DNA from: Candidatus Poribacteria bacterium
Lineage (GTDB): Bacteria > Poribacteria > WGA-4E > WGA-3G
Assembly (NCBI GenBank): GCA_965198235.1
Contig: OZ240248.1
Location: 2,816,001-2,880,000 of the forward strand
Direction: 5' to 3'
DNA length: 64,000 bases
The stretch's first letter is position 1, and each line of letters starts with the position of its first letter. A model generated the notes under the pieces. The model worked only from the letters and a program-made list of their open reading frames with translations. It did no database searches and had not been told where the DNA came from. A program made the position numbers and the translations under genes. Positions 1 to 26,553 of the stretch are shown in pieces.

Positions 1-624
1 CGAAACTTCGCTGTACTACTGATTATCTCCTTCGTTGTTGCTATTGAACTCCCCTTCTATTACAACTTGACATACCTGTTTCTAACCGAGGCAGAACACG
101 GTGTTGGTTTAGCAGGAAGTAGTGCCAATTTAGCGATGAGTCTCGGTCAAGTCGCCGAGGTTCTTTTGATGCTCCTCCTATTTCCGTGTTTGCGGCGGTT
201 TGGCATGCGGTTTACTATCTTTTTGGGTATCCTTGCGTGGCCCGTTCGTTATGCCATCTTCGCCATCGGTCAACCCGTATGGTTGGTTGTCGGTGCACAA
301 ACATTACACGGCATCTGCTATTCGTTCTTTTTCGTCGGTGGAATGATCGCTGTGGAACGGCTGAGTTCGCAAGATATTCGAGCGAGTTCTCAATCCTTGC
401 TCCTCTTTGTTACGAATGGGTTCGGGATGTTAGTAGGACATATTGTCAGCGGTCGTGTGCATGACTTCTTCGCTTACGCAGAAGGTGGGCACGCGTGGGC
501 GAAAATCTTTATGGTGCCGATTGTCGTAACAGTCTTTGCTGCAATCGCCTTCATCCTGTTATTCAACGAACAGAAATATCAGGCGGATGCAGAGGCAATC
601 GAACAAGACACCGCGAGCACATAA
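1..624 (+). CDS. MFS transporter, nucleoside:H+ symporter (NupG/XapB-like), 5' partial
   Basis: Frame is open from base 1; hydrophobic helices; motifs MSLGQVAEV, LHGICYSFFF and IRASSQ typical of the C-terminal half of nucleoside symporters. Confidence 0.75.
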   Translation, partial: RNFAVLLIISFVVAIELPFYYNLTYLFLTEAEHGVGLAGSSANLAMSLGQVAEVLLMLLLFPCLRRFGMRFTIFLGILAWPVRYAIFAIGQPVWLVVGAQTLHGICYSFFFVGGMIAVERLSSQDIRASSQSLLLFVTNGFGMLVGHIVSGRVHDFFAYAEGGHAWAKIFMVPIVVTVFAAIAFILLFNEQKYQADAEAIEQDTAST

Positions 625-16373: not shown

Positions 16374-17777
16374 ATGAAAACGCAAACGATGTATGAAAAA
16401 ATATGGGAGGCGCATCTTGTGCGCGCTTCTGCAGACGATGTCCCGATTCTCTATATCGACACGCACCTCGTCCATGAAGTCACATCCCCACAAGCGTTTG
16501 AGGGGTTAAGACTCAGCAACCGAAAGGTACGCCGCCCTGAACTGACGTTCGCCACGATGGATCACAACGTACCAACAACGGATAGATCGCTACCTGTCAC
16601 TGACCTGATTGCCGCGAAGCAGATGGAAACGCTCGCGCAAAACTGCGCTGAGTTTGACATCCCGCTCTACGACATCGACAGTCCTGAACAAGGCATCGTG
16701 CATGTCATTGGACCCGAACTCGGCATCACACAACCCGGTAAAACCCTTGTTTGTGGGGATAGCCACACTTCCACACACGGCGCGTTGGGTGCACTCGCTT
16801 TCGGCATTGGCACAAGCGAGATTGAGCATGTACTCGCCACGCAATGCCTCCTGCAACAGAAATCAGAGACCTTTGAGATTCGGATTGATGGCACACTCCC
16901 TTACGGCGTGACCGCAAAAGATATTATCCTCTCCATTATCGGGCACGTCGGTATTGATGGTGGTAACGGTGCCGTGGTCGAGTTTACAGGCTCGGCTATC
17001 CGCGCCCTCAGTATCGAGGAACGGATGACCGTTTGTAATATGTCCATTGAGGCAGGTGCTCGCGCCGGTATGATTGCTCCCGATGACACCACCTATGAAT
17101 ACATCGCTGGCAAACGTTTTGCACCGAAAGGTGAAGCCTTTGATGTAGCAGTTGAACACTGGAAGCAACTCCCGACTGACGAAGGCGCAGTCTACGATCG
17201 AACGTTGCAACTCGATGCCGCAGAAATCGCACCGCAGGTAACATGGGGCACGAATCCCGGCATGGTCACCAATGTAACGGGACGCGTCCCCGATCCAGCG
17301 GACATGGCGACAGCCGACGAAAAAACCGCTACCGAACACGCTTTAGCATATATGGATCTCAAACCCGGTACGCCAATCACAGATATTGCCGTAGATAGAG
17401 TTTTCATCGGCAGCTGCACCAACTCCCGTATCAGCGATCTACGAGTTGCCGCGGAAGTCGCAAAGGGTAGGAAGGTCTCAGGCACTGTCAGTGCGATGGT
17501 TGTCCCCGGTTCACAGGCGGTTAAACGCCAAGCGGAGGCAGAAGGGCTTGACGAGATTTTCCGTGCCGCGGGCTTCGAGTGGCGTGAAGCCGGTTGTAGT
17601 ATGTGCCTCGGTATGAATCCCGATATCCTGATGCCGGGACAACGCTGCGCCAGCACATCGAACCGAAATTTTGAAGGCAGACAAGGCAAAGGCGGACGCA
17701 CACACTTGGTGAGTCCACAGATGGCGGCTGCAACCGCAGTCACAGGTCACTTTGTAGACATCCGGACGTTTGGATAG
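16374..17777 (+). CDS. leuC: 3-isopropylmalate dehydratase large subunit
   Basis: [40 protein letters not shown]. Confidence 0.98.
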
Positions 17778-17855
17778 GTCAAATACGGGCTTGCACGAAA
17801 TGGTAAAGAGCATACCAACAACGTCCCCGCTACCAAGGAAAATACGGAGGTAACA

Positions 17856-18062
17856 ATGGAATCTACCATCATTGAAAAAATCAGGCAGCTTCCTCCGGAG
17901 CTCCAAGAAGAAGTCATTCATTTCATTGATTTTCTACGAACGAAAAAAAGTTCAAAACGGAAAAAAAGCCCGAATTTGGAGTGGATTGGCGGATTAAAAG
18001 CGTATCGTGACCAGTTTACAGCCCTCGAACTTCAGAAAAAAGCGTCAAATTGGAGGGATTAG
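17856..18062 (+). CDS. DUF2281-like antitoxin
   Basis: RBS GGAGG; IRQLPPELQEEVIHFIDFL; overlaps the downstream PIN gene start. Confidence 0.75.
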   Translation: MESTIIEKIRQLPPELQEEVIHFIDFLRTKKSSKRKKSPNLEWIGGLKAYRDQFTALELQKKASNWRD

Positions 18063-18262
18063 TGTACCTCGCGGATACCAATATTTTTCTTGAAGCCTTG
18101 TTGGGACAAGACAAAAAGGACGATGTTCAATCATTCTTACAGACTATTGACGATGCATACCAATACGCTGTCGCCGCGAAATATGAGATGCAACTCATCA
18201 GTTTCGATACGGATTTTGATCGAACTGAAAGGAAACGAAAGGAACCCATTGAGGTGTTATAA
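18062..18262 (+). pseudogene. PIN/VapC toxin with in-frame internal deletion
   Basis: YLADTNIFLE N-terminus joined directly to the DDAYQY...ISFDTDFD C-terminus; 66 aa, about half a PIN domain. Confidence 0.75.
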
Positions 18263-18337
18263 TGAAATTCTTGGGTAGTATGAAACCCAAATTCACCAGA
18301 AAATACCAAAAACACCCAGAAGGAGAAAACGGAAAAG

Positions 18338-18928
18338 ATGGAAGCATTCAAAGAGCACGTTGGACGTGTTGTCCCACTCGACCGGATTAATGTTGACACC
18401 GACCAGATTATCCCGAAACAATTCCTCAAACGCATTGAGCGGACCGGTTTCGGTGAATTTCTCTTTAACGACTGGCGTTACCTTGAGAATGGTGAGCCGA
18501 ACCCAGAGTTCGTGCTGAACCTTCCGCGCTATGCAGATGCGAGTATCCTCATCGCTGGCGTGAATTTCGGATGCGGGAGCTCCCGTGAGCACGCGCCGTG
18601 GGCACTCCAGCAGTACGGCTTCAAGGCGATTCTCGCACCTTCGTTTGCGGACATCTTCCGAAACAACTGCTATAAGAACGGTATTCTTCCGATAGCACTG
18701 TCCGCGGATATTATCACTTCACTCAGCGAAGCAGCACATGATACCGAGGGGTATCGGTTGATGGTGGATTTAGAGGAACAATCGGTCGTCTGTCCTGATG
18801 GGACTGCACATACATTTGACATCGGTGTTTTTGAGAAGTACTGTCTGCTGAACGGACTTGACGAAATCGGTTGGACTTTGCAGTATGAGGCAGACATTGC
18901 TGCCTACGAGAACCAGAATCCCTCATAG
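18338..18928 (+). CDS. leuD: 3-isopropylmalate dehydratase small subunit
   Basis: [28 protein letters not shown]. Confidence 0.98.
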
Positions 18929-19250
18929 TTCCCCAACCTTCCTGTCTATAGGCATCAATTGAGTATGCCCAGTAGGATTTCTTAACCCCATCGTCCCGCA
19001 ATTAGGTAGGTGCGGTTTTGCGGCGTACTCGCCCAAATGTGATCTGCATTCCTAACCGCACCCGACCTTCATTACAGTCTGGGGTGTGAGCAAGTTGGAT
19101 TCCACTATGTCCAGCCCAACCTACGAACTTTCTAACCTCTTTCTGAGCACACCTGAAAAAAGATTTGAAAAAGTTTGACGTTTATGGGTTAACCATAATA
19201 CGCTCACTGCTACCTTAAACTAACTGCCCAAACCTTGATAGGAGAGAAAA

Positions 19251-19358
19251 ATGCCATATAAGGCTATTGTATTCGATTTATTTGGAACTTTAGTCGAAAA
19301 TTTCAGCAGCCAAGCTTACGACCAAGTTCAAATTCAAATGGCAAAAGCCCTTTTTTGA
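19251..19358 (+). pseudogene. HAD hydrolase N-terminal remnant (35 aa)
   Basis: RBS GGAG; MPYKAIVFDLFGTLVEN carries HAD motif I; stops 15 nt before guaB. Confidence 0.65.
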
Positions 19359-19373
19359 CAGGAGGAATGAACA

Positions 19374-20873
19374 ATGGCTCATTTTTTTTCTGAAGCAAGC
19401 CGGACTTTCAGTGAATACTTGCTTTTACCTAACTTAACGACGAAGGATTGTATTCCTGAAAACGTTGTCCTGAGAACCCCCCTGGCGAAGTTTAAAGTGG
19501 GGCAACAACCATCTCTGGAAGTGAATATCCCGTTTGCTTCTGCAATCATGCAAGCTGTTTCGGATCACAATTTGGCAATTGCACTCGCAAGACAGGGCGG
19601 GATATCCTTTGTTTATGGGTCCCAAAGTATTGAAGAGCAGGCAGCAATGGTCCGAGCAGTTAAAAACCACAAAGCGGGTTTCGTCGTCAGCGACTCAAAT
19701 TTAAAGTGCGATAGCACCATAGCAGATGTCGTGAAACTAACCGAAGAAACAGGACACTCGACTATTGCTGTAACCGAAGAGGGTTCGTCTTCAGGAGAAC
19801 TACTCGGACTGATAACGGATAAGGATTATAGATTGAGTCGAGTGGATTTAAACGCTAAAGTAAGCGAATTGATGACTCCGTTTTCCCAACTGATTGTTGG
19901 TCGAAAAGGAATTACGATTGAAGATGCCAACGACCTCATTTGGAAACACAAGATAAATTGTTTACCGATTGTTGATGAAAACCGTAAACTGGTACATTTG
20001 GTCTTCAGAAAAGATTACGATGACCATAAGAAGAATCCCCTTGAATCAGTAGATTCCCATAAAAGACTTGTCGTCGGTGCCGGAATTAATACAAGAGATT
20101 ATAAAGAAAGAGTACCAGCACTGGTAGCAGCAGGTGTCGATATTATTTGCGTTGATTCTTCTGAAGGATATACAGAATGGCAATCAGACACCATTCGATT
20201 TATTAAAAATACGTACGATGATACTGTGAAAGTGGGCGGCGGGAATGTAGTTCACGGAGATGCATTTATGTATTTGGTAGAAGCCGGTGCTGATTTTATA
20301 AAAGTAGGTATCGGTGGAGGTGCTATTTGTATAACAAGGGAACAGAAAGGCATTGGTTGTGGGCAAGCGACTGCCGTCATTGAAGTCGCTCGGCAAAGGG
20401 ATTTGTATTTGAAGGAAACCGGTGTTTACGTGCCAATTTGCTCAGATGGCGGTATATTCCAAGATTATCATATTGGTTTGGCTCTTGCCATGGGTGCTGA
20501 TTTCGTGATGATGGGCAGATATTTTGCAAGATTTGATGAAAGTCCAAGTAAAGTAAGAAAATTGGGTATGAATACGGTGAAAGAATATTGGGGAGAAGGA
20601 ACAAAGCGAGCCTCCAATTGGCAACGCTATCACGAGGGCGGCGGTTCAGAATTACTGTTCGAGGAGGGTGCTGATGCATACGTACCATACGCAGGAAAGA
20701 TGGACGATAATTTGAAAACGACCCTCGCAAAAATCCGATCCCTCATGTGTAATTGTGGGGCGATATCCCTACCGGAATTTCGTCAAAAAGCGAGATTCGT
20801 ATTAGTCTCTTCAGCCAGTATTCGTGAAGGCGGTGTTCACGATATTATCCCAAGAACGACGCAAGATGGGTAA
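19374..20873 (+). CDS. guaB: IMP dehydrogenase
   Basis: [11 protein letters not shown] pair, [24 protein letters not shown]. Confidence 0.95.
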
Positions 20874-20946
20874 AAAGTCAATCATGAAATGCCGAAAACT
20901 TCTCCTGTTTCTTTTTCATGGCATTTTTTTTCTAAAGGGAGAACAA

Positions 20947-22539
20947 ATGAAAACTTTCGACAACAAAATTGCACTTAATCTTGACGATGAGGCAGAAGTC
21001 TCCGTCAAAGGTTTCATCGCGCCGATTGAATACACCCAATACAATTTCCACGTGGAGTGGGACGAGTTGGCAAACTTTCGAGCTGCTGAACCAGAAAAAC
21101 AGTATCCCACATCCGTTTTTCAAGCGTTTTTCCCATCGGAACCGGTTTCGATCGGTGAATGTTGGGAGATTCAAGAAGAGGACACGCTAACGTTACTGAA
21201 GCAACTTCATCCCAACCCACGCCTGAAGCTGACCATTGACTCAGGAGATTCGTATGGTTTGTGGGCATGTCTGCGCGCTTACAATGACGGACTTACTGAA
21301 ATTGTGTTCCGTATCCATGCGGAATTCGTCATGGAAAGCGGTAAGTTTACCCCGTCACAATTTGCTGGACATCTGGTTATTGACCGGGTCGAAGAGAAGG
21401 TCGTCTCTTTCAAAATGTACGTACCTCCAACGACACTGAATTTCGATGCCGGTTGGACGCAAGAAGATGGTGGAACTTTTGTGGAAATCGGCTTTTGTCC
21501 GCAGATGGAACTTGCTGTTGGCACACAACCGCATGATGTCGAATTCACAGCGTCAATCACGCAAGAAGAAGCCGAACGCGCCCTGATATCGCGTTCCTAC
21601 AAGTTTCAGCAAATCAACTGGGTATCGCTGGAGGAAGCATTGGAAATGGCACCCGCAGAACAGAAACCGATTCATGTCATCTCAGTAGATGGACCGCTCT
21701 TCGACGAGGCGTGCTGAGGGAGTGGCAAAGGCCTGAGGGCAGGTGAGCTCTCCGAAGATCGAATCATAGCGTTCTTGAACGAAAACTTTATCAACACGTG
21801 GGTCCCGAATGCGGAATTAGGACGAACACCGAGTTTGCGAGAACCGATTGCGAGGCGACGCGAGCGCGAAGGTAAGACGTTCGATACAACGCACGCCTTG
21901 GCGCAGGCAATTATAAAAAGTTGGAAAAAAGGGTCACCGGTGGACTGCTTGGTTATCTCGCATGAGTTTGAACCGATGGGCAGCGTAGACTACAATGAGT
22001 TCCCTGAGAACTTAGGGGAATTTGACGATGACACAGAGGCTTACCTATTCTTTCTTGAGTCATCCTTGGAAGGAAAACGTCCTGGACTGGGCGACCTTAT
22101 CCTTACCCGTGAACAGCCTTCACAGGAGGTGGTAGACACTTTTCGCACCCCGAAGGTAGCACACCAGGACTACACTGTTGTCGTAATTGATGCCACAACC
22201 TTTGAAAGAGGTGGCACGCTCACCATTAACATCCACGTCGGTAGAGACGATGCCATAGGAATATTCCATCTCCTCGACGGAGACAGTAAACTTCCAACAG
22301 AAAAAGCTCCTGATGGCATTGATCCCGCAGTATGGAACGATCAAGAAAGTGAGGAATATAAGAAGGCATTTGATGCACTTACCAAAGTATGGGGTATATT
22401 CCCCGATGAAACTGGGCGAATTACGTACCAGTTCGATCGCGGTCAACGCTTTAAATTGTGTGCGACTGGAGATCAATGGGGTGGAGTAGGGACCATAAAT
22501 GCTTTTCACGCAAGAATATCTGTAGAGCCAGCAGACTGA
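20947..22539 (+). CDS. Selenoprotein N-like protein; in-frame TGA at 21715-21717 proposed as Sec257 (530 aa read-through product)
   Basis: Frame continues past TGA as DEAC-U-GSGKGLRAGELSEDRIIAFLNENFINTW; SelN-like motifs on both sides of the TGA; hairpin downstream. Confidence 0.85.
21715..21753 (+). promoter_or_regulatory. Candidate bacterial SECIS element
   Basis: Stem GAGGGC (21735-40) / GCTCTC (21747-52) with loop AGGTGA starting 23 nt after the TGA; folded by eye. Confidence 0.55.
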
Positions 22540-22579: not shown

Positions 22580-23266
22580 TCATCCAACATCCGATAACCG
22601 CACAAACTGGTATCCATCTCGTTTAAGTGCCGCGATGATTCGGTCTGTCGCTTCAACCGTCCCTGAACGGTCCGCCTTCTTATTCTCTGCTTTGCCATCA
22701 TGTAGAACGATAATCGAACCCGGCTTTGTCTTCTTCAATACCGTCTCAGTGATCTTGTCAGGATTCTGTGTTGTCCAATCCCAACTCCATACATTGCAGC
22801 TGATGTGCGTTCGATCCCCTTTCGCGAGTACCCACGCCACCGGCAGAAACCTTGTCAACACCGGTGCTCGAAACACGACTTCACCTGTAATGTTGAATTG
22901 TTGAAGCAGGTTGTCCGTGCGTTCAATCTCCCGTCGAACATAGGTCGGTGGCAAGAAACCCAGCAGCGGGTGGCTGTAGGAATGATTGCCGATCTGATGT
23001 CCCTCAGCGATAACCCGTTTCACTGTTTCAGGATACTTTTCAACCCGATTTCCAATCATGAAGAATGTGGCTTTGACGTTGTGCTTAGCAAGGACATCAA
23101 GCAACCGATCGGTATAAGGCGGATTCGGTCCATCGTCATAGGTGAGTGCGACAATCCGTTGGTCTGTGTTCAGGTGAACAACATTCTTTCCGAACGGCGG
23201 TCTAAGGAAAAGCCATAGTAATGTCGCCGTTGCAAATCCTACCACAGCGGTGATTATTAAACTCAT
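22580..23266 (-). CDS. Polysaccharide deacetylase (NodB/CE4)
   Basis: ALTYDDGP, GNHSYSH, IIVLHD; N-terminal anchor. Confidence 0.93.
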   Translation of the reverse strand: MSLIITAVVGFATATLLWLFLRPPFGKNVVHLNTDQRIVALTYDDGPNPPYTDRLLDVLAKHNVKATFFMIGNRVEKYPETVKRVIAEGHQIGNHSYSHPLLGFLPPTYVRREIERTDNLLQQFNITGEVVFRAPVLTRFLPVAWVLAKGDRTHISCNVWSWDWTTQNPDKITETVLKKTKPGSIIVLHDGKAENKKADRSGTVEATDRIIAALKRDGYQFVRLSDVG

Positions 23267-23852
23267 AGGGACTGTTTCTGCTTTAAAGGAACGAAACTTT
23301 TGGTGTGAACTGTTTGCTACTTAGCGTTTTCTAAATCTTTACATCTAACCCACGTTTTCTACATTATACGAGCAGCATCGCCGTTTGACAACACTTTTTC
23401 AAAAGCGAAAAAGACACCTAATTTCCCAAACCCGGTAGGAGTAGTTTGATGAAAAAAATAATTCGGTAATTGACGAGCGATGAATCGGCCTACTACAAAT
23501 GGAGCTGCTTGTAATCTTGCCATTTATAGCATGTTAGGAAATTACCTGATTAAAACGTGAGTTCGATTTAAGTGCGTAAGGGATCAACGCCGAATGCGTG
23601 TATGCCAGTTGGATTGTTGGGTTTCGCTGTGTCTATCACACGAAGGGTTCATTGAAAAGTGGAACTCCCGGTATAAATAAGATGGTCTTGGTGTTTCAAC
23701 GCTCAACCCAACCTACGTGTCTGAATGGCTATGTATCAGCCCGATTTTTTCTTGACGGTTTGTATCAAACGTGTTATTATTTTTCCAATTGATTGAAATA
23801 CAGCGCGGTTTAGGGTTTTCGCCTGCTGCAGTATCATTTGAAAGGGGCAATA

Positions 23853-24265
23853 ATGCAGAGCCACGAAGTAGATTACGAAAGGATGCCTTCCTCTGCGCCG
23901 CCTTGGGTACCGCACTGGACATTGCCTTCTCACGCAGATTGGGCGCAGGGTTTTTTGGTGGTGAGGGCTTTATTCTCCAGCGCCTACGCGGCGATGGCAT
24001 GGCGTTTGTACATGCTGGCGGGACAGTCGTCAAAAAGGAGCTCGTCAATGAGACGCTCCGCGTTGATACGGGTTGTCTTGTCGCTCTTTCATCCGGTGTT
24101 GACTACGACATTGAAATGGTCAAGGGTTTAAAGTCAATGTTCTTCGGTGGTGAGGGACTTTTTCTCGCGACCCTAAGTGGTACTGGCACCGTTTACCTCC
24201 AGAGTTTACCTTTTTCAAAACTGGCTGACCGTATCATTGAACAAGTCCCATCTTCAAGCAGCTGA
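23853..24265 (+). pseudogene. AIM24/TIGR00266 family gene with internal deletion
   Basis: MQSHEVDYE start fused out of frame to KDAFLCAA...[11 protein letters not shown]...[13 protein letters not shown]. Confidence 0.75.
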
Positions 24266-24428
24266 TACTAAAAAGCCTCGCTGCGTCGGAAGTATTTCCC
24301 TTCGCTGTCTTAATTTTCAAAAAACTAATACGATGCTGTGAGCAAGCAACAATGGTCGCTTGCGGACTTTAAGCATAACCGCCAAGTTACCAACCCCGTT
24401 ATTTCACGCTTGGCGCATAGTTAAAAAT

Positions 24429-25532
24429 ATGAAAATTCGCTGTATTAAAGCCTATCAAGTTGACCTCCCGCTCTATGAAGGCAGCTATAACTGGTCCGGC
24501 GGGAAATCTGTATCCGTTTTTGACAGTACTATTGTCTCGGTTGAGATGGATGAAGGCATTACCGGTTATGGTGAGGTTTGTCCGTTGGGACCGTTCTATC
24601 TCCCCGCTTATGCTGAAGGCACCCGCACTGGCATTGCTGAACTTGCACCACACCTCATCGGTGAAGACCCGACGCAGCTGCTTCCGCTCAATCAACGTAT
24701 GGATACCGCGCTCAAGGGACATCCGTACGTGAAATCAGGGATTGACATCGCGTGTTGGGATATTCTCGGCAAGGTTTCAAACCAATCCGTCTGCACGCTT
24801 CTCGGCGGTAGGTATGGTGAGGATTTCATGCTCTATCGTGCGATTTCTCAACAATCCGCCGACGAGATGGCGGCGAAGGTTGCTACCTATCGTGCGGAAG
24901 GATATCGCAAATTCCAATTGAAGGTCGGTGGCGACCCAAATACAGATATTGAACGTATCCGAGCGGTTGCCGAACTGATGCAATCGGGGGATGTACTCAT
25001 TGCGGATGCGAATACCGGTTGGTTGATGCACCAAGCCGCCCGCGTCGTCCGTGGTGTGCGCGATGTGGATGTCTACATTGAGCAGCCCTGTCTCTCATAT
25101 CAGGAATGCCTCGCGATCCGTCAGCGTACAGATCACCCGTTTGTTCTCGACGAGACGATTGACAGCATCGAAGCATTGTTACGCGGTCATGCCGACCGAG
25201 CCATGGATGTCGTCAATATTAAGATAAGCAAATTCGGTGGGTTGACCAAAGCGAAACTCGCGAGAGATCTATGTGTTGAACTCGGAGTCGCGATGACAAT
25301 TGAAGATAGTTGGGGCGGTGATATTACAACCGCCGCGATTGCCCACCTCGCCCACAGCACACCGCCAGAATTTCTCTTCACAGCGACCGATTTCAACAGT
25401 TACGTCACCGTCAGTACAGCGGAAGGTGCCCCGCAACGCGCCAACGGCAGAATGGCAGCTTCAACACAACCCGGTTTGGGGATCACTCCGAATATGGCTG
25501 TGTTGGGAGAGGCGTTAGTTCACGTGGAGTAA
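24429..25532 (+). CDS. Enolase-superfamily enzyme, cis-3-hydroxy-L-proline dehydratase-like
   Basis: [44 protein letters not shown] metal ligands, EDSWGGDI. Confidence 0.75.
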
Positions 25533-25536
25533 TTGT

Positions 25537-26553
25537 ATGCCTATCAGAATCCTCTCCGCGTCCGATGTCCGAGAAGCCCTACCGATGTCCAAAGCAATTG
25601 ATGCGATGCGGCACGCCTACAGCCAACTTTCGGCAGGCAAGGTGACCGCTCCGCCACGCCAACATCTCTCCACTGACAAAGGCGTTACGCTCATAATGCC
25701 TGCCTATCTACCTGAGTGCAGCGAGTTCGGCATCAAAGTCGTCTCGGTCTATGACGATAACCCGAACCTCAACCTACCTCGCATCACAGCGACAGTCTTA
25801 GTGCTTGATCCAGAGACAGGATCCCCAAAAGCATTCATGGACGGTGCCAGCGTCACTGCTATCCGAACAGGTGCCGGTGGTGGCGTGGCGGCAGATTTAC
25901 TTGCGCGGAACGACGCAAAAACGGTTGGGTTATTTGGTGCAGGTGTACAGGCGAGGGCACAGTTACGGGCGGTGATAGCGGTTAGGGACATCGCGCGCGT
26001 TAACCTCATCAGTCGCACACACGCCTCTGCACAACAGTTTGCCACTGAGATTTCAGAGTGGTCAGATGCGCCAGAAGTCAACCTTGTATCTACGCCACAA
26101 GAGGTGGTGCAGGACGCTGATATTGTTTTATGTGCAACGACATCGGCAACCCCGCTTTTTGATGGAAACGCTCTGAAACCCGGTACGCACATCACAGCTG
26201 TTGGCACGTTCGTTCCAGAAAAACGGGAAGTCGATACAACGACAATAAGAAGGGCACATCGGATTGTGGTCGATTCACGGGAAGCCTGCTTAGAGGAGGC
26301 GGGAGACCTGATTATTCCGAACGCTGAGATTGAAAGTCTGTTGCGGACTCAAAAACAAGCAAGCAAAGCACCGCAACAGACTTTCGCTGAAATCGGAGAA
26401 ATCGTCAACGGCGATAAACTCGGACGGCAGTCAGACGACGAAATCACGTTTTTCAAATCGGTAGGCGTGGCGGTGCAAGATGCAGTCGCAGGCGCAGCGG
26501 TACTTGCAGAAGCGGAAGCAAAAGAGTTAGGTATTGTCGTTGAAATGGCATGA
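25537..26553 (+). CDS. Ornithine cyclodeaminase/mu-crystallin family; likely pyrroline-2-carboxylate reductase
   Basis: TAIRTGA, GAGVQA, EEAGDL, FFKSVGVAVQD; 4 nt downstream of the dehydratase. Confidence 0.8.
   Translation: MPIRILSASDVREALPMSKAIDAMRHAYSQLSAGKVTAPPRQHLSTDKGVTLIMPAYLPECSEFGIKVVSVYDDNPNLNLPRITATVLVLDPETGSPKAFMDGASVTAIRTGAGGGVAADLLARNDAKTVGLFGAGVQARAQLRAVIAVRDIARVNLISRTHASAQQFATEISEWSDAPEVNLVSTPQEVVQDADIVLCATTSATPLFDGNALKPGTHITAVGTFVPEKREVDTTTIRRAHRIVVDSREACLEEAGDLIIPNAEIESLLRTQKQASKAPQQTFAEIGEIVNGDKLGRQSDDEITFFKSVGVAVQDAVAGAAVLAEAEAKELGIVVEMA
26332..26385. repeat. Palindromic 54-bp in-frame insertion within the OCD-family gene
   Basis: 15-bp perfect IR GAAAGTCTGTTGCGG / CCGCAACAGACTTTC spanning exactly 18 codons. 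Confidence 0.8.

Follow-up and report, generated by a model that had tools for sequence, protein, structure and literature searches.

Does the TGA triplet at positions 21715-21717 of the 64-kb window (the whole stretch of DNA analyzed here, from a Poribacterial sponge symbiont) terminate a gene, or is it read as selenocysteine (Sec) within a longer protein that resembles animal selenoprotein N (SELENON)? As read from the sequence, a single plus-strand frame extends from the ATG at 20947 to the TGA at 22537-22539 and is interrupted solely by this triplet; reading through it gives 530 codons followed by the final TGA. The internal TGA sits inside the motif DEAC-U-GSGK, immediately after a Cys codon (TGC-TGA, 21712-21717), and the peptide across it is KPIHVISVDGPLFDEAC-U-GSGKGLRAGELSEDRIIAFLNENFINTW. 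The initial annotation, made from the sequence alone, had proposed one gene of 530 amino acids read through a UGA, with the same peptide around it; the length and the peptide were recovered on re-reading, and the frame proved to be open over 20947-22539, with the TGA kept in related loci. With a probability of about 0.85, this region represents one gene for a 530-residue, SelN-like redox selenoprotein in which UGA specifies Sec (Table 1).

Table 1. Features of the predicted selenoprotein gene and its product (coordinates are those of the window)
Feature	Coordinates	Strand	Basis
In-frame upstream stretch MKCRKLLLFLFHGIFFLKGEQ, possible signal-peptide remnant	20884..20946	+	tblastn of P0010 aligns from there
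Ribosome-binding site AAGGGAG	20935..20941	+	5 nt ahead of ATG 20947-20949
Predicted SelN-like selenoprotein gene, 530 codons + TGA	20947..22539	+	Frame, TGA-spanning homologues, one confident fold
N-terminal mainly beta domain, residues 1 to ~200	20947..21546	+	Secondary structure of the model
Thioredoxin-fold domain, residues ~205-375	21559..22071	+	Model; Foldseek
Cys256 codon TGC	21712..21714	+	TGC in 191/193 unique sequences, TGT in 2; C256 invariant in alignment A2
TGA as predicted Sec257	21715..21717	+	TGA at 198/198 sites; Cys in 6/24 read-through homologues; Sec machinery in genome
Candidate bacterial SECIS hairpin GAGGGC-AGGUGA-GCUCUC	21735..21752	+	Local fold, -7.6 kcal/mol; family pairing
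C-terminal beta-sandwich, residues ~385-530 (~146 aa)	22099..22536	+	Strands 392-528 in the model

The start codon is supported by the orthologues, which carry GAGGAGAA/GAGGAAAA at the position matching the ribosome-binding site and retain the ATG that matches the one at 20947. Of the 26 orthologues checked, 16 have a stop codon 0 to 21 nt upstream of this ATG, which makes a start at 20884, adding a signal-peptide-like stretch, unlikely.

Three of the checks suggested in the initial annotation were conservation of TGA or Cys at the Sec column, a search of the genome for the Sec genes, and structure prediction for the protein translated with U. As for the first, a Cys codon followed by TGA was found at all 198 motif sites in all 77 related Poribacteria loci, and five paralogues in the same genome have this pair as well. 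Matches in tblastn run across the stop (query residues 1-527 of 530), and both halves are conserved in the protein, with 57 to 81% identity in the best segment over the 77 loci. The idea that the TGA is a sequencing error or a nonsense mutation of the pseudogene type, suggested by nothing beyond the in-frame stop itself, is refuted in practice by the recurrence of the same TGA in 77 independent assemblies and in the five paralogues, as well as by the conservation of both halves.

Calling of ORFs with translation table 11 splits the locus into 20824..21717 and 21775..22539, and public gene calls likewise give two proteins, the split that the initial annotation had anticipated. Among the 268 homologues of the window protein compared at the Sec column, 85 stop exactly there in the public gene calls, 118 start just past it, and 24 read through it. 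Such calls would fit two separate genes, with the TGA as a true stop and a downstream part that has its own start, a reading that is scarcely tenable. The downstream ORF has only the TTG at 21775 and no ribosome-binding site, exactly as first described; the called starts of the downstream fragments are inconsistent among homologues (query residues 263, 277, 288, and 297); the frame continues across all 198 sites; fused Cys forms exist; and, judging from the predicted structure, the split would cut the thioredoxin fold between strand 1 and helix 1.

Six of the 24 read-through homologues (P0131, P0132, P0152, P0157, P0162, and P0203), all from bacteria outside Poribacteria, have Cys-Cys at this column, and the remaining 18 have Gly, Trp, Ala, Thr, or Phe. 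In one Poribacterial clade, Gly (GGA or GGC) replaces Sec; Trp (codon TGG), Ala, Thr, and Phe are each found in single homologues. Thus, Sec, or any redox residue, is not indispensable in every member of the family.

All four genes of the Sec machinery were found in the genome above curated cut-offs: the tRNA-Sec gene selC (78.1 bits, anticodon TCA), the adjoining selB, selA, and selD, which itself holds one TGA. Elsewhere, TGA serves as an ordinary stop, ending 291 of the 1,341 open frames in the genome that have 400 codons or more and four of the eight local genes checked, the SelN-like gene included.

Evidence of constraint at the RNA level comes from synonymous codon choice, which is frozen from codon -1 to codon +11 around the UGA (21712-21750) and relaxed at sites further downstream. 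Ser+2 is encoded only by AGY (162/162), Leu+6 only by YTG (188/188), and Arg+7 only by AGR (193/193); Ala+8 is GCA in 168 of 174 cases, Gly+9 is GGT in 138 of 139, and Leu+11 is CTC in 186 of 193. The frozen stretch overlaps a GGU-loop hairpin with covariation, a candidate bacterial SECIS element whose role is predicted from sequence. In the window, its stem begins 17 nt past the UGA, and the loop GGUG occupies positions 21742-21745. In register R1 (alignment columns 24-29 paired with columns 34-39), 92.8% of the cells are paired, versus 42 to 83% with the partners slid; both-sided changes are seen in 18 cells, and the covariation score is 0.143, versus 0.099 in shuffles. None of 500 shuffles attained the R1 value for pairing or for covariation, in a set of related sequences from one phylum, for which such counts can be inflated. 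Either R1 with 6/6 pairs or register R2, slipped by 2 nt, with at least 6/7 pairs can be formed by 164 of the 170 unique sequences, with AGGU, AGUU, or GGUN in the loop. The window's own sequence forms only 4/6 pairs in R1 and uses R2 (6/7 pairs), and in three divergent paralogues of the genome a stem of 6 to 7 bp is capped by the loop GGUC. Over the 64 nt that follow the UGA, folding stability does not exceed that of shuffled sequence (z = 0.44), RNAalifold on alignment A1 returned a weak partial structure only, and Rfam recognized no family at the UGA site or anywhere in the 64-kb window. In the downstream region of selD, a loop of the GGU type was not clearly seen. A hairpin of the global minimum free energy fold (columns 8-14/37-42 plus 20-24/29-33, loop AGGG) is 89% paired without covariation and was ranked below the GGU-loop hairpin. 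Similarly to bacterial SECIS elements such as that of E. coli fdhF, the candidate lies within the coding sequence just 3' of the UGA, and its apical loop contains G and U; compared with fdhF, this loop is presumably separated from the UGA by a few additional nucleotides.

A GGU loop is typical of SelB-binding SECIS elements, as exemplified by E. coli fdhF, and this argues against the UGA being read by an ordinary tRNA (a near-cognate for Trp, Cys, or Gly) with the hairpin as a general stimulator of read-through. So do the full Sec machinery in the genome, the location of the residue at the redox-active position of the predicted thioredoxin fold, and the six Cys-Cys forms: where distant homologues have retained the neighboring Cys, the column itself holds Cys, and not Trp or Gly. 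Decoding of this kind would agree with the Trp (TGG) and Gly (GGA/GGC) homologues and with the ability of hairpins 3' of UGA to boost plain read-through, described in passages of PMC8704476, and appears very unlikely overall.

The third check produced one confident fold: the AlphaFold model of the whole protein has a pLDDT of 92.7 and a pTM of 0.79, and its thioredoxin fold spans the TGA. This domain, modelled alone, has a pLDDT of 90.3. The order of elements in the model is strand 242-247, Cys256-Sec257, and helix 258-265, so that the predicted redox residues lie at the N terminus of helix 1; in the model, the Cys-Sec pair falls where a DsbH/AGR-like thioredoxin fold has its active site. Foldseek searches with residues 200-380 retrieved DsbH-type proteins, AGR2/3, ERp19, DsbD-gamma, and the UAS domain of UBXD7. 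The best PDB folds were 7tkv (E value, 3.9e-05), 3ira, 2ju5 (DsbH), 3ph9 (AGR3), 1sen, and 2dlx (UAS; E value, 0.039), with Foldseek probabilities of 0.99 to 1.00 for all six and 1.00 for the first four. Sequence searches of Pfam, NCBIfam, and PDB with the read-through protein gave no match, and alignment A2, used as a profile against PDB, returned only chance-level hits with E values above 0.6.

The N-terminal domain contains the blocks FRIHAEF, TPSQFAGH, VPP..LNFD, and IGFCPQMEL, which are conserved in the family, and residues P160 and N165, which correspond to conserved columns in alignment A2. The C-terminal beta-sandwich is of a Poribacteria type, duplicated in some paralogues (two copies in P0003, P0004, and P0008) and missing from P0131 and P0152. 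It bears out the extra C-terminal region of about 150 amino acids noted initially, and the Cys-form homologues of other bacteria are devoid of it. Matches of the whole model were weak (jelly-roll, GOLD, and CBM-like) and were not tied to one domain. The absence of an N-terminal transmembrane anchor and of an EF-hand, claimed at the outset, also holds: the Pfam search of the read-through protein gave no EF-hand, no N-terminal hydrophobic segment is visible by eye in the translation, and the assigned start has the orthologue support described above. Such a segment is present in some other bacterial homologues (P0264 and P0270). The window copy has no signal peptide, other paralogue clades have one, and the window protein is probably cytoplasmic.

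Sec insertion, redox chemistry, and substrates can be inferred along the following lines. The UGA at 21715 would be decoded as Sec by Sec-tRNA(Sec) and SelB, directed by the short GGU-loop hairpin 17 to 35 nt downstream, within the coding sequence, acting as a bacterial SECIS. The product would combine the N-terminal beta domain, the DsbH/AGR-like thioredoxin-fold domain, and the C-terminal beta-sandwich, and its redox center would be the adjacent Cys256-Sec257, positioned where the first helix of the thioredoxin fold begins. This pair most likely cycles between the selenolate/thiol and selenenylsulfide states and could be expected to reduce or rearrange oxidized cysteines on partner proteins, as has been proposed for animal selenoprotein N.

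The relation to SELENON was assessed with the Atlas, where "Selenoprotein N" (98% Eukaryota) is the cluster that lies nearest to the Cys-form homologue P0131, with a score of 0.93 and 207 of 256 features shared; the query was a homologue rather than the window protein, and the Atlas gives the nearest cluster without an alignment or E value. P0131 itself matches the window protein over residues 8-342 with an E value of 1e-58. According to the Atlas's own notes, true family members usually share at least 170 features, and scores of at least 0.9 arise for 4 to 10 in 100 shuffled proteins. The N-terminal family consensus agrees with the blocks attributed to human SELENON in the initial annotation. 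The family also shares residues with SELENON beyond the CU pair itself, as described in passages of the literature cited below: Ser or Ala before it, Gly after it, and a basic residue at U+4. On the Atlas match and this motif agreement, homology of the family to SELENON is supported but not proven, and the large bacterial family is likely the prokaryotic counterpart of SELENON.

The protein could instead be a true bacterial selenoprotein on a thioredoxin fold that is unrelated to SELENON, the C-U-G motif and the similarities around it being convergent or confined to the common thioredoxin fold. This would be in line with the empty Pfam, NCBIfam, and PDB sequence searches, with the frequency of high Atlas scores among shuffled proteins, and with the Atlas query by the Poribacterial full-length protein P0010, which gave only a Poribacteria cluster (0.78) and not SELENON. 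The 207 shared features, the motif agreement, and the presumed fit of the N-terminal blocks all count against it and make it improbable. A search for longer proteins with the N-terminal ORF found 15 Poribacterial proteins, and a profile search with alignment A2 among proteins of 575 to 2,000 amino acids found one protein; neither returned a eukaryotic SELENON.

The bacterial family of SelN-like proteins comprises 438 representatives of 50%-identity clusters, and Planctomycetota clusters were among the Atlas results. In Poribacteria, it forms tandem arrays, a genome having from several to about ten copies. Since the family is so large and diverse in bacteria, a recent host-to-symbiont transfer, one form of the host-symbiont transfer raised in the initial annotation, looks unlikely. 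A more tentative reading, doubtful as a whole, is that SELENON is bacterial in origin, that its SRE hairpin is a remnant of a bacterial SECIS, and that the Poribacterial expansion is an independent adaptation. If so, the stem lineage of animals would have acquired a large and ancient bacterial Cys-Sec thioredoxin-fold family, the SRE of animal SELENON would be an evolutionary relic of the bacterial SECIS seen here, and the Poribacterial arrays would adapt sponge symbionts to a selenium-rich, oxidizing host matrix. The neighboring genes encode aconitase-family subunits, IMP dehydrogenase, a polysaccharide deacetylase, AIM24, an MR/MLE enzyme, and an OCD-family protein; no functional link emerged from the genes of the neighborhood in the window.

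Mutations in SELENON cause human myopathies. The function of this protein and the role of its Sec are still called "enigmatic" in passages of a 2026 review (PMC12936836), and SELENON is treated as animal-specific in the relevant passage of PMC2375036 and as a metazoan accretion in that of PMC7016017. No bacterial SelN appeared among the matches listed in the literature searched; work in subscription journals could exist. Neither the PDB sequence search with the read-through protein nor the profile search with alignment A2 found a solved structure. A bacterial SelN family would offer soluble, single-polypeptide models for structural work and enzymology. It would also make the origin of the SELENON gene testable, perhaps along with that of its peculiar SRE hairpin, and would represent a selenoprotein family missing from Pfam and NCBIfam. 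In public proteomes of these genomes, its members now appear as truncated hypothetical proteins in pairs, and sponge symbionts are therefore credited with too few selenoproteins.

Among known systems, SELENON resembles the window protein in the Cys-Sec-Gly motif, which is SCUG in SELENON according to passages of PMC12839072, ACUG in the window protein, and SCUG in many of its paralogues. Both have a basic residue four positions past Sec (parts of PMC12839072, PMC8148124, and PMC12936836) as well as a "CU" domain that is thioredoxin-like, described for SELENON in a passage of PMC8148124. Both also have an RNA hairpin just 3' of the UGA, the candidate SECIS here and the SRE there, which the 2026 review (PMC12936836, in part) places directly 3' of the UGA and likens to a bacterial SECIS. 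SELENON differs in being an ER-luminal glycoprotein with a type II membrane anchor and an EF-hand, neither of which is found in the bacterial, probably cytoplasmic, window copy; in lacking the extra C-terminal beta-sandwich; and in relying on a 3'UTR SECIS in place of a candidate in-frame bacterial SECIS and bacterial Sec machinery. The C-terminal GCUG of thioredoxin reductase, compared with the SCUG of SELENON in a passage of PMC12839072, likewise has adjacent Cys and Sec followed by Gly, which makes a selenenylsulfide possible; however, that motif lies on the flexible C-terminal tail of a flavoenzyme, whereas in the model of the window protein it falls where a thioredoxin fold has its CxxC. 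The DsbH, AGR, and ERp18-19 proteins, together with the UAS domain, gave the best matches in structure and also have their redox residues at the start of helix 1, but their identity to the window protein is only 12 to 18%, they contain CxxC or CxxS in place of the vicinal C-U pair, and the two flanking beta domains are found only in the window protein.

The gene at positions 20947 to 22539 is, judging from its sequence, a genuine, mis-annotated selenoprotein gene in a large bacterial SelN-like family, with incorporation of selenocysteine (Sec) predicted; the probability that this is a single gene with Sec at the UGA is put at about 95%. As the initial annotation had proposed, one frame runs from the ATG at 20947 through TGC-TGA at 21712-21717 to the TGA at 22537-22539 with no further stop between, and a mechanical ORF listing yields 20824..21717 plus 21775..22539, the latter starting with TTG. 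Genome-wide reassignment of TGA is ruled out, since TGA serves this genome as a normal stop: among 1341 open frames 400 or more codons long it terminates 291, and it also terminates 4 of the 8 nearby genes checked, the selenoprotein gene itself being counted among the 4. A check for the Sec machinery recovered tRNA-Sec, selB, selA, and selD. The tRNA-Sec (78.1 bits, anticodon TCA) directly adjoins selB, and selD carries an in-frame TGA, so that the organism's selenophosphate synthetase is probably a selenoprotein as well.

Positions 20884-20946, upstream of the start and in frame with it, encode a hydrophobic stretch that looks like the signal peptides seen in other clades of paralogues and is possibly what remains of a lost one. 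Clear signal peptides are found in those clades and none in the window copy; in 16 of the 26 orthologues checked, a stop lies 0 to 21 nt upstream of the ATG equivalent to that at 20947. No redox or selenium operon context was found around the gene: the neighbours (16374-20873 and 22580-26553) are housekeeping or unrelated genes, coding for aconitase-family large and small subunits, IMP dehydrogenase, a convergently transcribed polysaccharide deacetylase, AIM24, an MR/MLE-family enzyme, and an ornithine cyclodeaminase-family protein.

A word-indexed database search returned 262 relatives, and a full HMMER scan returned 438 cluster representatives (50% identity) at E ≤0.001, 282 of them at E ≤1e-10. 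Among the 268 homologues stored from both searches, 85 have as their last residue the one that precedes the TGA, within the motif ...D[EQ][SA]C, 118 start just past the TGA column, with starts called at differing query residues (263, 277, 288, and 297), and 24 read through the Sec column. Ends and starts of this kind are expected where a selenoprotein has been split by gene callers, and the suspicion that annotation splits the gene is thereby borne out. One database "protein" (P0064) joins the tail of one copy with the head of the tandem copy behind it and terminates in DDESC. Conservation of the TGA was surveyed in 77 Poribacteria loci, retrieved by similarity, by looking for the upstream motif plus the next two residues, whatever these were; at each of the 198 motif instances they were encoded by a Cys codon and TGA, the Cys codon being TGC in 191 of 193 unique sequences. 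Strong matches were detected in 76 of 81 same-family genomes; among the matches listed, they reach 11 per genome and almost all contain exactly one internal TGA.

The window's own genome carries five paralogues with the Cys-TGA site, and two of the four further copies are only 6.5 kb apart (see the table). Tandem arrays of SelN-like selenoprotein genes occur in Poribacteria, with up to six Cys-TGA sites in a single 11-kb locus and five in each of several more loci.

Coordinates of the features discussed (window positions unless a residue, protein, locus, or contig is named; G000:C1, contig of the window's own genome; L, Poribacteria loci; P, homologous proteins)
Feature	Location	Strand	Details
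Start codon ATG	20947	+	Strong ribosome-binding site AAGGGAG ahead of it, 20935-20941
Hairpin, slipped register	21735-21752		Loop GGUG at 21742-21745; -7.6 kcal/mol
N-terminal domain	Residues 1 to about 200		Mainly beta; most conserved blocks of the family; AlphaFold model
Thioredoxin fold	Residues about 205-375		Strand 242-247, Cys256-Sec257, helix 258-265; AlphaFold model
C-terminal beta-sandwich	Residues about 385-530		AlphaFold model
Further SelN-like Cys-TGA paralogues	G000:C1:1266554, 1799320, 5038327, 5044898	-, +, +, +	Same genome as the window gene
tRNA-Sec/selB pair	G000:C1:3673008-3675162
selD	G000:C1:3115227-3116150
Tandem array	L078		Cys-TGA sites at 2305, 3941, 5571, 6780, 8528, 10500
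Other tandem arrays	L021, L023, L035, L037, L073, L090, L097
Gly-codon loci	L099-L103, L109-L111		Same orthologous clade as next row
TGA loci	L098, L105, L106, L108, L112
ECF sigma-factor fusions	P0215, P0132		Regions 2 and 4; hydrophobic stretch between them in P0215
Leucine-rich repeat fusion	P0267
Prolyl-oligopeptidase fusion	P0256

Cys, the residue suggested as a check on the Sec column, is found there in 6 of the 24 read-through homologues, as Cys-Cys. In the remaining 18, wherever the DNA was read, the first or third base of the codon departs from that of TGA. Thirteen of these, all from one Poribacterial clade, have Gly (of the 8 loci with DNA read, 5 use GGA and 3 use GGC), and Trp (two), Ala, Thr, and Phe are isolated cases. 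TGA alternates with GGA/GGC among close orthologues of that clade (70-86% identity to P0010, a full-length Poribacterial protein). In several Gly forms, the adjoining Cys codon and hairpin positions are changed too. A SELENON UGA-to-GGA construct is mentioned in PMC2248747 among mutations that give rise to rigid spine muscular dystrophy.

In sequences that all come from one phylum, synonymous sites are almost frozen from the Cys codon through codon +11 and relaxed further on. Ser+2 uses AGY only (TCN occurs in other Ser columns), Leu+6 YTG only, and Arg+7 AGR only (Arg+15 is CGN); Ala+8 is GCA in 168 of 174, Gly+9 is GGT in 138 of 139, and Leu+11 is CTC in 186 of 193. A hairpin model derived from the global fold of the window was 89% paired over 150 sequences, yet showed no covariation, and ranked below a 6-bp hairpin (consensus GAGGGC-AGGU-GUCCUC, alignment columns 24-29/34-39). 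This candidate recoding hairpin is paired in 92.8%, versus 42-83% with slid partners; both-side changes occur in 18 cells, at two of its pairs, and the observed covariation was reached by 0 of 500 shuffles. Because the 3' arm ends in CUCUC, a stem with a 2-nt slip (columns 24-30/35-41, loop GGUN) is also possible, and this is the register that the window adopts; in 164 of 170 unique sequences, one register is perfect or the other has at most one mismatch. Three divergent paralogues of the window's genome share, after the TGA, GAGAGCG/CGCUCUC arms around a GGUC loop, with 6 or 7 bp paired by RNAfold. In E. coli fdhF, SelB recognizes a GGU-bearing apical loop. The 64-nt fold in the window is no more stable than shuffles, and neither the site nor the whole window matched an Rfam family.

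AlphaFold gave a single confident model (pLDDT 92.7, pTM 0.79; alignment of 57 sequences). In this model, Cys256-Sec257 occupies the classical thioredoxin active-site position, with a strand before it and a helix after it, and the TGA therefore falls in the middle of a fold unit. Modelled on its own (pLDDT 90.3), the middle domain has as its best PDB matches DsbH-type thioredoxin domains (7tkv, 3ira, and 2ju5), AGR2/AGR3, ERp19, and DsbD-gamma, with a weaker match to the UBXD7 UAS domain. The extra C-terminal region pointed out earlier is modelled as a beta-sandwich, which Cys forms from other bacteria lack and which some paralogues carry in two copies. The adjacent Cys-Sec pair could be expected to cycle between selenolate/thiol and selenenylsulfide, which would suit reduction or isomerization of oxidized cysteines in partner proteins, which the two beta domains would bind; this exact chemistry is proposed from the model with less assurance than the homology to SELENON. 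Reviews ascribe a reductase role of this kind to SELENON (PMC8148124).

The architectures of the family vary, including ECF sigma-factor fusions, a leucine-rich repeat fusion, and anchored forms. Further modules are joined to the SelN-like domain, or to its C-terminal beta-sandwich, in proteins of other bacteria (P0215, P0132, P0232, P0267, and P0256). These fusions might be gene-calling artefacts; those with sigma-factor regions hint at an extracytoplasmic redox-sensing role.

The Atlas cluster nearest to P0131, a Cys-form homologue that matches the window protein at E 1e-58, is "Selenoprotein N" (score 0.93, 207 of 256 shared features), which is 98% eukaryotic, mostly chordate, and stands above two bacterial clusters in which Planctomycetota is the most frequent phylum; P0010 as the query retrieved a Poribacterial cluster only. 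The bacterial family has [S/A]CUG with K/R at U+4 and, around the motif, the same thioredoxin-like fold as SELENON; the human SELENON blocks quoted in the initial annotation agree with its consensus. As the initial annotation stated, the SELENON-defining membrane anchor and EF-hand are both absent from the window protein, although some other bacterial homologues do have an N-terminal hydrophobic anchor. On the strength of Atlas cluster, motif, and fold, homology with SELENON is likely, and the window protein, a probable member of the SELENON family, is called SelN-like. By analogy, it would work like the catalytic part of SELENON.

SelN has been called animal-specific (PMC2375036), reported in the sponge Amphimedon (PMC3473315), and counted within a metazoan accretion (PMC7016017). 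No bacterial SelN was found among the literature matches listed, whose coverage excludes most subscription journals and supplements, nor is one mentioned in the accessible parts of a prokaryotic selenoproteome review (PMC13188914) or of the deep-Sep and GOS studies. The size of the bacterial family and its varied architectures argue against recent host-to-symbiont transfer and make a bacterial origin of SelN plausible. The SRE hairpin that SELENON mRNA carries immediately 3' of its UGA resembles a bacterial SECIS, according to a 2026 review (PMC12936836). A bacterial relative with a candidate SECIS exactly where the SRE sits suggests that the SRE may be a relic of a bacterial SECIS.
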